DNA of 64,000 nucleotides from positions 1,760,001-1,824,000 of the forward strand of contig OZ244799.1 in assembly GCA_965219955.1 (NCBI GenBank), written 5' to 3'. The stretch comes from a bacterium. Lineage in GTDB: Bacteria; UBA8248. The notes beneath the pieces were generated by a model that saw only the letters and a list, made by a program, of their open reading frames with translations, made no database searches and was not told the origin of the DNA. Numbering within the stretch: position 1 is the first letter of the stretch; the number at the start of each line of letters is the position of its first letter. Below, one piece after another: positions 927-30,635 of the stretch. The translations under genes and the position numbers were made by a program.

Positions 927-1087
927 CGCGGCTCCCTTTTTTCTCGGCGCGTCATGTGCGGAAAACGCATCACGTCCGAACACATCCGGACATATCACTT
1001 CGGGCAGGTTATCATATTCCCGCCGTCTTCGATTCGAGAGATTATTTCGCCGGGAACTCTTGACTTGGGCGTTATGCGGCGCGGAAG

Positions 1088-1648
1088 ATGACCCCTCGAC
1101 ACGAGAAAGCAAGTGGCTCTCAGCAAGAGGAATATCTTTTGGGCGAGAATGGCGCAAGCGCAGGCAAAACGGTCCGGAAACTTCACGAACTCGGCTTCAC
1201 GCACGCTCTCATGATCCCGGACAGCGAGAGCCGTCTTCTATACGAAGCCCTGGAAAACGACCCGGAAATCGACCTGATCACCCCCTGCCGGGAGGGAGAA
1301 TCCGTCGCCATCGCGGCCGGGCTCTGGACGGGCGGCCTCAAGCCGCTGCTCGTGATCCAGAACACGGGCCTGATGGAGGCGGGAGACTCTTTAAGGGGCT
1401 GCGGGGTCGGCCCCAAAGTGCCCCTGCGCATGATGGTCGGCTGGCGGGGATACGGCGGGGCGACGGCCGGAAAGCTGCCGATCGATTCGGCCTATACCTT
1501 CACGGAGCCGCTGCTTCAGGCGTGGAGAATCCCGACCTGGCGCCTCAAGTCGGACGATGACCTGGGAACGCTCGAACTGATGGACCAGACGGCGGCGGAA
1601 ACTTCTTATCCGGCGGCCGTGATCACCGGCTACGGGTTCAAACCTTGA
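1088..1648 (+). CDS. TPP-dependent decarboxylase alpha subunit (ComD/sulfopyruvate or phosphonopyruvate decarboxylase-like)
   Basis: IPDS, REGESVAIAAG, IQNTGL and GWRG motifs of the TPP N-terminal (Pyr) domain. Confidence 0.75.
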   Translation: MTPRHEKASGSQQEEYLLGENGASAGKTVRKLHELGFTHALMIPDSESRLLYEALENDPEIDLITPCREGESVAIAAGLWTGGLKPLLVIQNTGLMEAGDSLRGCGVGPKVPLRMMVGWRGYGGATAGKLPIDSAYTFTEPLLQAWRIPTWRLKSDDDLGTLELMDQTAAETSYPAAVITGYGFKP

Positions 1649-1661
1649 AAGGCGGATCACC

Positions 1662-2246
1662 TTGATAGATCGCATGGAACTGTTCCGGACAGTGGCGGAG
1701 CGAAGAACGAACGAGATCGTGGTGATGACCATGACGGCTACTCTCCAGTGGCCGCTGGTCTCTAAAAGCGACCTCGATTTCGATTTCCTGGCCTTCGGCA
1801 TGGGGCACGCCGCCGATTTCGGCTTAGGACTCGCCATCGCCCGGCCCGAGCGAAAAACCATTGTCTGGAAGGGCGACGGAGGGATACTGATGAGCCTGGG
1901 CTCGCTGGTGACGCTGGCCAGGTATGCGCCCGAAAACCTTGTCGTATTCCTGCTCGAGAACAGGAGCTACGAGATGGTGGGCGGGCAGGAACTCCCCCCG
2001 CGGGCCGATTTCGTCGAACTGGCGCGCGCCTCGGGCTTCGAGGGCGGAGGCGCGACGGCAAAAGGCAAGGTGGAACGAATTGATTCCCTGGAAGCGTTTC
2101 AGGACGCCCTGCCCCGGATTCTCACCGAGGCGGGTCCACATTTCATCGTTTTGCCGGTGACGAACAGGGAGAAACTTCCGCCGGTGAACCATTCGGACCA
2201 TGCGAAGAGAATCCGGACTCTCAGAAAGGCCCTGAACGTGTCATAG
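1662..2246 (+). CDS. TPP-binding beta subunit (ComE-like)
   Basis: GMG...GLGLA and GDGG...LEN.SY...GGQ TPP/Mg-binding motif; adjacent to the alpha subunit. Confidence 0.75.
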   Translation: MIDRMELFRTVAERRTNEIVVMTMTATLQWPLVSKSDLDFDFLAFGMGHAADFGLGLAIARPERKTIVWKGDGGILMSLGSLVTLARYAPENLVVFLLENRSYEMVGGQELPPRADFVELARASGFEGGGATAKGKVERIDSLEAFQDALPRILTEAGPHFIVLPVTNREKLPPVNHSDHAKRIRTLRKALNVS

Positions 2247-2250
2247 GGCA

Positions 2251-2940
2251 TCACTTCTGAATCAATATCTTGTTCAGTTCGTCGAGCGAGGTGATTTCCG
2301 CGTCGATTTCATGCGGGACGCGCTCTTTCTTCTGTCCGAAGCGATTGACCCAGACGACGCGATACCCGAAATGAGAGGCCCCCGCGATGTCCCAGCCGTT
2401 CGATGAGAAAAAGCAAATCCTGTCGGCGGGAACACCGAGCCGGTCCACCGCCAGTTGATAGACCGATGCGTGCACCTTGAATATCCCGACGCTCTCCACG
2501 GATAGAACGTCTTCGAGATATTCCTCGATGCGTGCGTTTTTCACCGCGCTGCCGAGCATTTCGGGAGAGCCGTTGGAGAGAATCGCGGCCCGCACCCCGT
2601 CTTCCCGCAACTTTTTGAGCACGCCCTTCACCTCGGGATACGCGCTAAGCTGCTTGTAGAGCATCATCAGTTCTTCGCGAAGGTCCGGGTTCTCCATCCC
2701 CAGCGTATCCATGGCGAAATCGAGCGCATCGCCCGTTACCTGCCAGAAATCCGCGTGGTTGCCCATCAGGCTTCTCAGCCACGTGTACTCAATCTGCTTG
2801 GTCCGCCAGAGCGAGGAGAGGGCCTGCCAATTATCGCCGAGTTCGGATTGCTTTTCCGCCGCCGCAGCGGTCACGTCGAACAGCGTGCCGTAGGCGTCGA
2901 ACAGACACAGGTCGATTTCATGATCACCCAGCCGGAGCAT
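2251..2940 (-). CDS. Haloacid dehalogenase type II ((S)-2-haloacid dehalogenase-like)
   Basis: FDAYGTLFDV, WR.KQ.EY, LSNG, FK and SSNGWD motifs. Confidence 0.9.
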   Translation of the reverse strand: MLRLGDHEIDLCLFDAYGTLFDVTAAAAEKQSELGDNWQALSSLWRTKQIEYTWLRSLMGNHADFWQVTGDALDFAMDTLGMENPDLREELMMLYKQLSAYPEVKGVLKKLREDGVRAAILSNGSPEMLGSAVKNARIEEYLEDVLSVESVGIFKVHASVYQLAVDRLGVPADRICFFSSNGWDIAGASHFGYRVVWVNRFGQKKERVPHEIDAEITSLDELNKILIQK

Positions 2941-2975
2941 CTCTCATCCACCTCCATAAAATGCGGTCATTTTCC

Positions 2976-3950
2976 TCATGGAAACAGATTTATCTTGCCC
3001 AAAAACTTGCCGCTCAGGAGAACCTCGTGCGATTCGTTCGCCTGCTCCAGGGGCAGTACCCGCCCGATATGAGGCCTGATGGCGCCGCTTTCCAGCAAGG
3101 GAGGCAGACGCCTCAATATGCCCGGGACGAGAGGATTCAGATTGCCCGAGGAGAGCGCCAGAATCCGCGCGTCCCGGCCCATGGCCGCAGGCAGGGGAAT
3201 CGTCACATCCGGGCCCTTGCCCGTCCCCGTTCCGACGATGACGATCCGGCCGTTGACGGCGTTGAGTTTGAGGTCCGCAGGCAGATTGTCACAACCTATA
3301 TTCTCAACGACGACGTCGACGCCCCTGCCGGAAGTGAGCTCCATTACGCGCTCGGGCACGTCTTCTTCACGGTAGTTGATGGCCGCCTCGGCGCCCGCCG
3401 CAAGGCAGAAATCCGCCTTTTCCCCGGAACTGACCGTCGTGAACACCCGGCAGCCTAGCGTGCGGGCGAGCTGGATCGCCAGATAGCCCACGCCGCCGGC
3501 TCCCCCCTGCACGAGCACGCAATCGCCCGGCGCCGCCTCTCCCTTCACGACCAGGGCGTTCCAGGCCGTGAGCAGCGGGATGGGCAGCGCGGCGCCTTCC
3601 GCAGAAGACATCGAATCCGGAAGCTTTCCCGTCGAGTCTGCGGGCAGCAGCCCTTTTTCGGCATACGCCCCGGTGGAGGCGCGGCCCCACACCCGATCGC
3701 CCGGCGCGAACGTCTCGACGCCCTCGCCCACCGACTCCACTTCACCCGCGACGTCCGTGCCGCAGGTATAGGGCAGCGTCATCGCCCCCGCGCGCGGATG
3801 ATTCCCCGATCGTATGGCGACTTCCAGGGGATTCACGCCCGCCGCCGCTATCCGCACCAGCATCTCACCCGGCCCGGGTTCGGGCTCCGCCACCTCTTCC
3901 AATTCCATGGGATGCTCGAGCCCGAACCGCGTTACTCGTACCGCTTTCAT
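2976..3950 (-). CDS. NADPH:quinone oxidoreductase (zeta-crystallin/MDR family)
   Basis: AAGVNP, G.D.AG.V and GGAGGVG nucleotide-binding motif. Confidence 0.85.
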   Translation of the reverse strand: MKAVRVTRFGLEHPMELEEVAEPEPGPGEMLVRIAAAGVNPLEVAIRSGNHPRAGAMTLPYTCGTDVAGEVESVGEGVETFAPGDRVWGRASTGAYAEKGLLPADSTGKLPDSMSSAEGAALPIPLLTAWNALVVKGEAAPGDCVLVQGGAGGVGYLAIQLARTLGCRVFTTVSSGEKADFCLAAGAEAAINYREEDVPERVMELTSGRGVDVVVENIGCDNLPADLKLNAVNGRIVIVGTGTGKGPDVTIPLPAAMGRDARILALSSGNLNPLVPGILRRLPPLLESGAIRPHIGRVLPLEQANESHEVLLSGKFLGKINLFP

Positions 3951-28499: not shown

Positions 28500-28940
28500 C
28501 CTCACCCTGAGTAGCCGCCGAAGGCGGCGTATCGAAGGGCGGCCCCAATTGAACAATGAGGGATTGCTCCGAGCCCGTCGAGAGAAGCGACCCTCTTCTT
28601 GGCTGGCAATCGCTCCCGCATTGGGGCTGTTGAAAAAGCCCGGAACTCTGGATTTGTCGTATGTAACCGACCGACGAGAGAGAAAAATCACTCCCCCTCA
28701 AGGGGTTGTTGAAAAACCCTGTTTTGGGGTCGGCGGCATGGAGGTTCACGCGGCGCAGGCGCGATGGTTTTGTAGGGACAGGCCTCCGCGCCTGTCCTCA
28801 CGAAGGACAACCACGAAAGGCAGGACAGGCACGGAGGCCTGTCCCTACGGGCGAATGCAGTTTTGATCGTCATTCCGGCAATCAATGCCGACCGAGGAGG
28901 GGTTTTTCAACAGCTACCCTTGAGGGGGATGTGTAGGTCG
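28500..28940. repeat. Nested REP/MITE cluster left of the IS110 element
   Basis: CTCACCCTGAGTAGCCGCCGAAGGCGGCG unit; MITE 28701-28915 near-identical to 11153-11388 and 47500-47706. Confidence 0.8.
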
Positions 28941-29015
28941 ATGGGGTGGACGCCTCCTTCCGGCGGATTAGAATGTGGCGAGACGACGTCACACACCGCC
29001 CGGAAGGAGACGACC

Positions 29016-30041
29016 ATGGGAGGAGTCTACATCATCGGGGTCGACTTGGCGAAACACAGTTTTCAACTCCACGGCGCGTGGGCGGACGGGCGGGTCGCGT
29101 TCCGCAAGAAGCTGACGCGGGCGAAGGTGCTGGAGTTTCTGTCGTCGCAGCCTCGATGCGTGGTGGCGATGGAGGCGTGCGCGAGCGCGCACTACTGGGG
29201 GCGCGAGGTCGGCAAGCTCGGCCATGAGGTTCGGCTCATGCCGCCGGTCTACGTGAAGCCCTACGTGAAGCGCCACAAGAACGACGCGGCGGATGCGGAG
29301 GCCATTTGCGAGGCGGCCACCCGGGCGACGATGCGCTTCGTGGCGGTGAAGAGCGAAGCGCAGCAGGGGTGTGGGATGGAGTACCGCACGCGGGATTTGC
29401 TGGTGGGTCAGCGCACGCAGGCGCGCAACGCGCTGCGCAGCCACCTGGCGGAGTTCGGGGTCGTCGAGCGGCAAGGGCCCGTGGGCCTCACACGGCTGGC
29501 GGCGGCGGTTCGGGGAGCGGAATCGGGCCTGCCCGAGGAGGTCCGCGAGTTGGGCGGGATTCTGCTCGCCCAGATTGGCGGCCTCGATGCGAAGGTCCGG
29601 GAGTTGACCGGACGGCTCCGGGCGAGCGCATACGCGGACGAGGAGGCGCGGCGTCTGATGAGCATCCCGGGTGTTGGTCCGATTACGGCGTCGGCGATCC
29701 GGGCGTTCGCGCCGCCGGTGGAGAACTTCCGTCGGGGCCGTGACTTCTCGGCCTGGCTGGGTCTGGTTCCCCGGCAGCACTCCACGGGGGGCAAGCCCCG
29801 TCTGGGGGGCATGTCGAAGATGGGCCAGCGCGACGTGAGGCGTCTGTTGATATCGGGCGCGATGTCGGAGATACGCTGGGCGGGGCGTCGCCGGAAGCCG
29901 CCGTGTCCGTGGCTGGCGCGGATGCTGGCGCGCAAGCCGAGGAAGGTGGTGGCGGTGGCGCTGGCGAACCGGATGGCGCGCATCGCGTGGGCGCTGATGC
30001 GGAACAAGGATGTCTACAGGGAGCCGGCGCCCCTCGCCTGA
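29016..30041 (+). CDS. IS110/IS1111 DEDD recombinase
   Basis: IGVDLAK, MEAC..AHYW, KND..DAEAI, SIPGVG, GLVP.Q.STGG and KVVAVALAN. Confidence 0.95.
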   Translation: MGGVYIIGVDLAKHSFQLHGAWADGRVAFRKKLTRAKVLEFLSSQPRCVVAMEACASAHYWGREVGKLGHEVRLMPPVYVKPYVKRHKNDAADAEAICEAATRATMRFVAVKSEAQQGCGMEYRTRDLLVGQRTQARNALRSHLAEFGVVERQGPVGLTRLAAAVRGAESGLPEEVRELGGILLAQIGGLDAKVRELTGRLRASAYADEEARRLMSIPGVGPITASAIRAFAPPVENFRRGRDFSAWLGLVPRQHSTGGKPRLGGMSKMGQRDVRRLLISGAMSEIRWAGRRRKPPCPWLARMLARKPRKVVAVALANRMARIAWALMRNKDVYREPAPLA

Positions 30042-30300
30042 GCGGCGGGCGCACGGATAGAGCCGGGAGGAATGTGAGCAGGCCGGAGGAAGGGTAAGGG
30101 CAAACGGTCATCGAGACGGGACCGGGAAAACCAGATATATGTCCAGAGCCACCGAGCTCACCAGGTCGATTTGGACCCGGTCCACCTATCTCCATACGGG
30201 CCCGCGGCCAGAGTAAAGCGCCGCAACGAAGAGGCCGGATATACGACTGAGCCGAACCGCTTTGCGCCGAACCCTCCCCAAAAACCGCTTGCATTCTCGT
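30042..30300 (+). ncRNA. Putative seekRNA/bridge RNA of the IS1111 element
   Basis: Stem GGACCGGG/CCCGGTCC enclosing ATATATGTCC and AGGTCG, which match the target flanks; ATATACGA matches the circle junction. Confidence 0.7.
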
Positions 30301-30635
30301 GGGCGTCCATATACGGACATATATGTCCGACGTATACGCGACCCTGCCTTTTCGCCTTCCAGCGACGGGCCGCATATATGCGGCCCCTACAATCAATTCC
30401 ACCCGGTGAGGAAGGGATTGCCGGAATGACGGTGAACAATCTCGATTGGGGGCAAGAACCCCTTAGGGGGACTTTTTCAACAGCCCCCGTCGCATCCCGT
30501 TCGCAGTGCAAGCCGATGCGTTGCCCGCCGCTTCGGCTTCATACATAATGCGCGCATTGCATACGCTTCCCATACGAACCGACCACCCAGGATGGAGATC
30601 GTTTCTTTATCTTCGTGTAAAAGGAGACCTCCGAG

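Follow-up and report, generated by a model that had tools for sequence, protein, structure and literature searches.

An intact IS1111-group insertion sequence with a putative right-end guide RNA matched to repetitive extragenic palindromes in a UBA8248 bacterium

A stretch of 64,000 nucleotides from a bacterium of the GTDB lineage UBA8248 (contig OZ244799.1 of assembly GCA_965219955.1, positions 1,760,001 to 1,824,000; hereafter the window) carries, at window positions 28941-30315, an insertion sequence that by its protein and ends is a member of the IS1111 group of the IS110 family. The element is intact, and it is very probable that an RNA from its right non-coding end guides insertion into repetitive extragenic palindromes (REPs). 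This reading draws on the anatomy of the element, on its copies and their insertion sites within one genome, and on a conserved right-end structure in which four short segments covary with flanks and ends among relatives. The term REP is used descriptively throughout, because no Y1_Tnp (RAYT/IS200-type) gene was detected in the genome (PF01797, 0 matches), which is assembled as one contig of 4.28 Mb and is 94% complete.

Anatomy of the element and its predicted guide modules

The element is 1375 bp long, starts with ATGGGG and ends with ...CCATATACG at 30315, as judged by sequence inspection, and lies between a left flank GTGTAGGTCG (28931-28940) and a right flank GACATATATGTCCGAC (30316-30331). 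The features that bear on its targeting are as follows.

28931..28940, + strand: left target half of the REP-A type (GTGTAGGT with the left CG core, 28939-28940); copies L001 and L008 share this left flank
28941..30315, + strand: insertion sequence, its last two bases being the right CG core (30314-30315); eight copies are 98-100% identical and have the same ends
28941..28946, + strand: left-end terminal hexamer ATGGGG, proposed partner of the donor segment at 30190-30195
28947..28954, + strand: left subterminal inverted repeat TGGACGCC, reverse complement of 30302-30309
29016..30041, + strand: transposase/recombinase gene of 341 amino acids, identified by Pfam, NCBIfam and homology; reading frame intact in 8/8 copies
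30118..30183, + strand: predicted target-binding module, with an outer stem (30118-30126/30176-30183), an inner stem (30131-30136/30169-30174) and an internal loop holding both target guides, from folds and compensatory changes
30135..30144, + strand: putative top-strand target guide ATATATGTCC, complementary to the core G plus GACATATAT; site of allelic difference at 30137-30139 (ATA or GCG)
30146..30159, + strand: distal hairpin between the target guides, GAGC (30146-30149) with GCTC (30156-30159), from fold and covariation
30163..30168, + strand: putative bottom-strand target guide AGGTCG (left flank AGGT plus CG core); AGGGCG in copy L006
30190..30195, + strand: putative donor guide CTCCAT; complements ATGGGG of the left end, one of the pairs being G.U
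30199..30236, + strand: predicted donor-module hairpin (30199-30203/30231-30236 and 30204-30208/30220-30224), between the donor guides
30239..30245, + strand: putative donor guide ATATACG, identical to the final 5 nt of the right end followed by the CG core
30302..30309, + strand: right subterminal inverted repeat GGCGTCCA, 8 bp
30316..30331, + strand: right target half of the REP-A type (GACATATATGTCCGAC), from sequence and copy comparison

When the element is deleted together with one CG, the flanks join as a perfect 20-bp palindrome with a GTAG head, which confirms what an earlier sequence-only reading of the window had reported; the uninterrupted 24-nt target GTAGGTCGGACATATATGTCCGAC occurs once more in the genome, near C1:450379. 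The non-coding ends measure 75 nt upstream and 274 nt downstream of the transposase gene. Relatives of the element are 1352-1405 bp long with homologous ends, most of them with a subterminal inverted repeat of 10 bp as compared with the 8 bp found here.

The transposase contains an N-terminal, RuvC-like DEDD domain (PF01548, E 1.9e-13) and a C-terminal domain (PF02371, E 8.2e-23), and scores 302 bits against a cut-off of 140 with the NCBIfam model NF033542, 'IS110 family RNA-guided transposase'. Over residues 1-334 it is 38-39% identical (E 5e-58) to plasmid-borne transposases annotated as IS4321/IS5075, and the solved IS110-group proteins IS621 and ISCro4 align with the C-terminal half only (IS621, E 4e-9). 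The stretch G249-L-V-P-R-Q-H-S-T257-G258 fits the motif GL-P----S(t)G, its TG aligning with the SG of ISCro4. Transposases of the IS1111 group have been described as 330-350 amino acids long with this motif (Siddiquee et al. 2024, PMC11187229), and the subterminal inverted repeats of the group as 7-17 bp (Durrant et al. 2024, PMC11208160); these two papers, which like all others here are cited from excerpts, define the group by such features and place the guide RNA in the right end. Domains, length, motif, repeats, a longer non-coding region downstream than upstream and a core at both junctions thus all agree with the IS1111-type assignment made from the letters alone.

The downstream non-coding end contains the stem GGACCGGG (30119-30126) / CCCGGTCC (30176-30183), the guide segments, the small hairpin between them and ATATACGA (30239-30246), each where the sequence-only reading had placed it, and the minimum free energy fold of the right end reproduces the architecture so described. 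That reading had matched ATATACGA to a predicted circle junction; its first seven bases hold up, and its final A is not supported as a guide base, the base after the core being A, T or G in relatives in which the left end always begins with A. Three points are added here, namely three guide alleles, a second donor segment (CTCCAT, 30190-30195) and pairing with the core by its G only. A match as long as the 10-nt one to the right flank was reached in 0/5000 mononucleotide shuffles of the non-coding end, and one as long as the 7-nt match to the right end in 154/5000; the weaker segment matches become convincing only because of the relatives considered below. The two target guides are arranged with the top-strand match 5' of the bottom-strand match, overlapping at the core, and both modules place a top-strand-type segment 5' and a bottom-strand-type segment 3' of a hairpin, the same order as that reported for IS1111 seekRNAs (Siddiquee et al. 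2024, PMC11187229).

Taken together, these features suggest a mechanism in which the DEDD recombinase would work with a two-module RNA from the 274-nt right non-coding end. In the target module (30118-30183), the 5' segment would pair with the top strand of the right flank, and the 3' segment, identical to left flank plus CG, with the bottom strand; in the donor module (30190-30245), which has the same layout, CUCCAU would pair with the top strand of the left end, and AUAUACG corresponds to right end plus core. The element would leave as a circle with its right and left ends joined at CG, and the RNA would bridge this junction and a CG-bearing target, with strand exchange at the core. The predicted targets are two REP families, GTAGGT-CG-GACATATAT and GGG(G/T)-CG-GACACGCA, one or other of which each of the three loop alleles would fit, and the RNA could probably serve any copy in trans. 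The circle, the RNA and its ends, its binding by the protein, core strand exchange, a junction promoter and action in trans are expectations carried over from published work on IS110/IS1111 elements. No joint from 30315 to 28941, as such a circle would contain, was reported among the contigs of four runs, contigs being a form of data that drops rare forms.

Covariation of the guide segments among relatives

Relatives were collected by a protein-based scan of contigs from one genome per species, which returned 80 loci at 56-81% amino-acid identity, 55 of them with the anchor GAGGCC[GT]G downstream of the gene. Of 54 distinct relatives, 47 have, next to the anchor, a heptamer identical to the right-end heptamer of that same relative, 61-74 nt further on. 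Nine different donor heptamers, counting those of this genome's own elements, and two cores, CG and TG, are represented, and the rule holds for the three element types present in this genome (ATATACG, ATACACG and ACATACG). The core dinucleotide, read as CG by the sequence-only reading and found to be so in this element, is CG or TG throughout the tabulated relatives, and wherever both ends could be placed, the left flank has the core of that same element as its last two bases.

The target segments were compared with flanks at 41 unique insertions of about 30 distinct relatives, using 1274 non-cognate guide/flank pairs as a control. The segment preceding the distal hairpin agreed over at least 6 nt with core plus right flank, read as the reverse complement, in 36/41 cognate cases and in 3.8% of non-cognate pairs; for the segment before the inner stem against left flank plus core, the corresponding values were 24/41 and 1.2%, and both matches reached at least 6 nt together in 22/41 insertions as opposed to 0.16% of the control. 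Left-end guides of the CTCCAT type were tabulated for 43 elements, 42 of which have a correctly called left end (that of L020 was mis-called): 14 are perfect complements (CTCCAT/ATGGAG in 11, CGCCAT/ATGGCG in 3), 14, including the element described here, have one G.U or G.T wobble, and 14 have one mismatch. Position 5 of the left end (G, A, C or T) pairs with guide position 2 (U, U, G, and A or G, respectively) in 42/43 elements, the forty-third being L020. The segments named as target and donor guides by the sequence-only reading therefore do vary together with the flanks and ends among relatives.

An alignment of 31 right ends yields a consensus of five helices, comprising the outer target stem, the inner stem, the distal hairpin and a two-part donor hairpin. 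Within these helices 97.4% of cells are standard pairs, as compared with 29-40% after displacement of the 3' partners by 1-3 columns; eight pairs change on both sides, and the covariation score was unreached by any shuffle. Covariation is concentrated in the target module, with both sides of column pair 59:74 in the distal hairpin changed in 15/31 sequences. Two further pairings were considered. For a possible basal long-range helix enclosing both modules, neither of two 3-bp pairings, of columns 16-18 with 159-161 or with 176-178, is better than the other. A complementarity of GTCCACC (30180-30186) to nucleotides 5-11 of the left end was reached in 568/5000 shuffles, is not conserved in relatives and was treated as chance.

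Among 60 related genomes searched, the family is present in 16/22 other genomes of the same genus. Elements of 84-85% identity in these genomes carry GGGTCG, GGGACG or GGGCCG as the left-flank segment, with an exactly matching left flank in 5/6 insertions and one mismatch in the sixth (L218, GGGCCG), and their right-flank segments match a CATATATGCG/CATGTATGC palindrome. The CATATATGCG-type palindrome serves as target for these 84-85% relatives (L216-L219, L235 and L236), and a GGCCGCATATATGCGGCC palindrome (30367-30387) adjoins the element in the window. A separate metagenome scan with a 19-nt loop pattern matched 120 stretches, and none of the 80 loci screened carried the right-end motifs of the family; 66 of them carry an unrelated GTG variant, and eight read by eye (seven of the other 14 and one GTG locus) were unrelated sequence, so the pattern was set aside as too unspecific.

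Copies, guide alleles, junctions and expression signals

Eight full copies of the element, 98-100% identical and all with intact reading frames, are found in the genome, one of them diverged by about 2%; a ninth full-length element (L009) is a 78% relative with its own intact gene of 341 amino acids (254/341 identical). L001-L006 are identical across the element except at target-module positions, where these six copies differ by 3-6 bases in the loop, and at one right-junction base in L005. The element thus looks active, since six copies that differ in nothing but the target loop and one junction base, with intact reading frames, point to recent activity. Comparison of insertion sites, a check for which the sequence-only reading had named unrelated targets as the refuting outcome, proved favourable to that reading. 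It places 4/8 copies (L001, L005, L008 and the window copy, L003) in the same REP family, here REP-A (GTAGGT-CG-GACATATATGTCCGAC), and 3/8 (L004, L006 and L007) in a second family, REP-B (GGG(G/T)-CG-GACACGCAGGTCCGCCCCTAC), which matches a second guide allele. The remaining copy, L002 (G000:C1:1959370-1960744), interrupts a cobW-type (COG0523) GTPase gene at a genic REP look-alike, GGAGGT-CG-ACACGCAGG, with cobW upstream and CobW_C downstream in the same frame (1079-3797 of the locus). REP-A and REP-B share CGGACA, and vacant sites of both exist elsewhere in the genome, in which REP-A, a TCAGAC variant and REP-B each occur in many copies as short extragenic palindromes with a GTAG head.

Three guide alleles were distinguished. 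Positions 30137-30139 read ATA in L001, L002, L003 and L008 and GCG in L004, L005, L006 and L007; in addition, L006 has C>G at 30162, T>G at 30166 and C>U at 30122 (with the stem pair kept as G.U), so that AGGTCG becomes AGGGCG, the left arm of REP-B. The GCG allele shifts the complement of the right-flank guide from GGACATATAT (REP-A) to GGACACGCA (REP-B), with three added pairs to REP-B. The REP family that fits a copy's own allele houses 6/8 copies, and it is the logic of base pairing, not this count, that carries the argument from alleles. All three ATA-to-GCG changes are transitions, and intermediates would therefore keep wobble pairing with both REPs, offering a stepwise route of retargeting. 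In other genomes of the genus, a 96% copy at a contig end combines the GCG loop with a CGGGCG left-flank guide and a 98% copy has the ATA loop, so the alleles are older than this genome and have been kept on near-identical backbones. A tentative reading, which we place a little short of even, is that the eight copies together supply a small set of guide RNAs that act in trans and share one backbone, in which the loop module is exchanged or selectively kept apart while the remainder is homogenised, and in which three loop alleles would let the same element colonise two REP families.

The CG core is present at the left junction in 8/8 copies and at the right junction in 6/8, with the right C absent from L005 (694059-695431) and L008 (4205791-4207163), which read ...CCATATA-G-GACATAT. 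In an independent DNA run this base, at 30314, is likewise missing (19.4 of 41 depth), and shortfalls of 1-2 nt at the right junction also occur in relatives from other species (L221, L237, L238, L224, L228 and L021). The top-strand guide lacks a base to pair with the core C, and this may loosen the core register and so shorten right junctions by 1-2 nt; the guide of the nearest relative that uses the same target type reads UGUCCG, the extra G of which pairs with the core C. A different anomaly is seen at L007, which is trailed by a second copy of the element's last 70 nt (G000:C1:4139968-4140037, L011) that starts exactly after the internal ATATACG and is followed by REP-B. In other genomes, one family member is inserted in the donor-guide region of another's right end (L021, 2424-3799), and L020 has tandem repeats running from donor module to right end. 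The DNA of the donor guide duplicates right end plus core and could plausibly serve as a false right end, an idea that recalls published 'half-match' recombination.

Several partial family members were also noted. A transposase-less right-end module, 74% identical and with a decayed distal hairpin (1389-1714 of locus L012, G000:C1:3812308-3812633), begins 20 nt beyond a tRNA-Ser(CGA) gene. The left-flank guide of the module is similar to the 3' end of the tRNA, and its right flank misfits the other guide. A 5'-truncated remnant of a third family member (L010, G000:C1:1860662-1860986) retains the last ~20 transposase codons, the right end and the donor heptamer ACATACG. A tenth PF02371 match in the genome (G000:C1:2635316-2635552), with an in-frame TAG and beside a 71% DNA match (L014), is probably a broken, more distant member.

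Candidate expression signals are found at both ends of the element.

28947..28974, + strand: sigma-70-like promoter candidate upstream of the transposase gene (TGGACG, 16 nt, TAGAAT), by consensus match only
28946..29017, + strand: predicted left-end hairpin pairing the Shine-Dalgarno region and start codon with 28946-28966 (-38.1 kcal/mol, z -3.87)
30289..30294, + strand: TTGCAT, a -35-like hexamer that in a circle would lie 17 nt before TACGAT spanning the joint of right and left ends

The promoter candidate is the sole match in 28800-30450, for which 0.2 would be expected from shuffles, and no terminator-like site was found in the same interval. The left-end hairpin, as well as which 0/200 shuffles fold, may act as a block on translation of read-through transcripts, and transcription from the predicted left-end promoter would start within it. 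At the other end, CTTGC is invariant in 31/31 relatives at a near-fixed distance from the right end, consistent with a junction promoter in the circle, analogous to Pjunc of other IS110/IS1111 elements (PMC12288879). Two studies provide RNA-library contigs (three runs) that are 95-99% alike to the right end and span 30005-30345, 30026-30330 and, piecemeal, 29956-30313, and several follow the scaffold and diverge exactly at the guide-loop bounds, 30134 or 30167. Contigs cannot show transcription, the ends of an RNA or its binding by the protein, and DNA may occur in such libraries, and we take these as a weak hint of such RNAs with other guides; most transposase bins are uncovered in them, which is not readable as low expression.

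No precise empty-site joint was reported in the run contigs, the joints listed (28848-28851 to 30331-30468) falling in flanking repeats. A long near-perfect hairpin repeat at 28771-28849 (GTAGGGACAGGCC...GGCCTGTCCCTAC), with very high summed contig depth in a metagenome run, is probably another abundant palindromic repeat family; the only Rfam matches were to microRNA models on this hairpin, all below gathering scores, and were dismissed, the hairpin being unrelated to the element. A short repeat, GGGTTTTTCAACAGC, and its inverse flank the REP cluster on both sides (28700-28722, 28900-28916 and 30466-30486).

Alternative explanations and known systems

A number of observations weigh against guidance by a right-end RNA. 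At the level of the single element, the 6-nt match to the left flank was reached in 944/5000 shuffles and is not significant by itself, the right end matches no Rfam family, and the top-strand guide (UGUCC, then A) pairs only the G of the CG core. Among relatives, 25 of the 80 loci (truncated contigs or anchor variants) are left out of the analysis, the exact donor heptamer is missing in 7/54, the cognate bottom-strand match is shorter than 6 nt in 17/41 insertions, elements of the TG-core subgroup have one mismatch in the left-end guide (12/43), and the donor hairpin, with 100% of cells paired, is nearly invariant and gains weak support from covariation. Within the genome, two copies depart from the fit of allele and site, namely L005, which has the GCG allele in REP-A, and L002, which has the ATA allele at a site that fits GCG in a register shifted by one; the association in 6/8 copies, calculated by hand, is not significant at n = 8. 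Action of the RNA in trans would explain these two exceptions. For ISPpu10, a trans-acting recombinase system is reported, going by a section title (preprint 10.64898/2026.03.19.712850). The short right junctions, moreover, are not predicted by a simple precise exchange.

One alternative is that the protein alone chooses the target and the right-end strings are captured target or end fragments, or chance matches. The bottom-strand (6 nt) and donor (7 nt) matches are indeed weak alone (944/5000 and 154/5000), the target is palindromic so that ATATATGTCC is also literally present in the REP, and the conserved donor region GAGGCCGGA(C/T)ATA resembles a REP-A-type target. We nonetheless consider choice by the protein alone extremely unlikely, because the same positions change with flanks and ends in about 30 relatives that have unrelated targets, because the structure that holds the segments is conserved and shows compensatory changes, and because experiments on IS1111 elements have shown the RNA to be required and reprogrammable (PMC11187229). 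A module with guide-like segments might also be a passenger or regulatory small RNA that transposition does not need, like Ssr9/MITEPpu9 of ISPpu9, and partial modules lacking a transposase gene do exist (L012, the L010 remnant, the 70-nt tail of L007 and the tandem tails of L020). ISPpu9 transposes without ssr9, but its bridge RNA lies upstream and ssr9 is an extra (PMC12288879), whereas the element described here has no other long non-coding region, its 75-nt left end being mostly hairpin and promoter. The module carries the segments that match flanks and ends and is present in all nine full-length copies (the eight and L009), and a passenger role appears very unlikely.

It is likewise scarcely credible that the copies are relics, no longer active and multiplied not by transposition but through duplication or recombination of REP-rich stretches. 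Two copies are one right-junction base short, a duplicated tail follows one copy and divergence reaches about 2% in one, as relics might show; however, six copies are identical over ~1370 bp in different unique contexts, all reading frames are intact, and L002 splits the cobW-type gene into halves that remain continuous in frame, which argues for a recent insertion. Guidance of an active-looking IS1111-type element to REPs by an RNA from its right end is the reading we retain.

This element represents no new mechanism and is a well-supported further case of the seekRNA/bridge-RNA-guided IS110/IS1111 recombinases, a class described in 2024. What it contributes is a large alignable family, present in many other genomes besides those of the genus, in which both target and donor modules can be read by eye, which helps to define an IS1111-type RNA scaffold, and an unusually clean natural case for programmable recombinases that are now being engineered. 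Near-identical copies that differ only in the guide loop and occupy two repeat families amount to natural retargeting at the shortest evolutionary distance, and the short right junctions, the insertion in a genic look-alike and the false right end, which resemble the half-match idea, are relevant to fidelity and off-target activity. An allelic series of guide loops on identical copies in one genome, together with junction anomalies, is uncommon, and we found it described in none of the IS110/IS1111 papers compared, which did not come from a literature search aimed at these features.

Closest in kind are the IS1111 elements ISEc11, ISPa11, ISKpn4 and ISPst6, for which seekRNAs have been described and which share with this element the DEDD transposase, the motif, subterminal repeats and a long downstream non-coding region, as well as a top-strand match 5' of a bottom-strand match, the two overlapping at the insertion point (PMC11187229). 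Comparison of ISEc11 with ISXne4 in the same paper reveals natural retargeting by loop change alone, as seen here. The element in the window differs from these in belonging to another lineage (38-39% identity to proteins annotated as IS4321/IS5075), in having alternative loop alleles on otherwise identical copies in one genome, and in a clear second (donor) module defined by covariation, the matches described in PMC11187229 being to the target. A right-end bridge RNA has been predicted for 93% of IS1111 elements (Durrant et al. 2024, PMC11208160).

More distant is IS621, an IS110-group element with its RNA in the left end and a protein that aligns over the C-terminal half only. It reportedly targets REPs, going by the title of a 2003 paper by Choi and colleagues. 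To both is assigned an RNA with two loops, through which target and donor are read at one common core dinucleotide (Durrant et al. 2024, PMC11208160); the two differ in that the order of guide segments is reversed in IS621, according to Siddiquee et al. (PMC11187229). ISPpu9 and ISPpu10 of Pseudomonas putida resemble the element in being multi-copy, in inserting into REPs or bacterial interspersed mosaic elements, and in having leftover partial modules and alternative ends; they differ as members of the IS110 group with an upstream bridge RNA, an AG core and a dispensable extra module, ssr9 (PMC12288879; 10.64898/2026.03.19.712850). For ISPpu10, a stem-loop at the target has been shown to be a second layer of specificity (10.64898/2026.03.19.712850).

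The nearest proteins by full-length similarity, at only 38-39% identity, are the transposases of IS4321 and IS5075, members of the IS1111 family named here as annotated in plasmid records. These elements are said, from the title of a 2003 paper by Partridge and Hall, to target the ends of Tn21-type transposons. Such targets are unrelated to the REPs occupied by the element described here.

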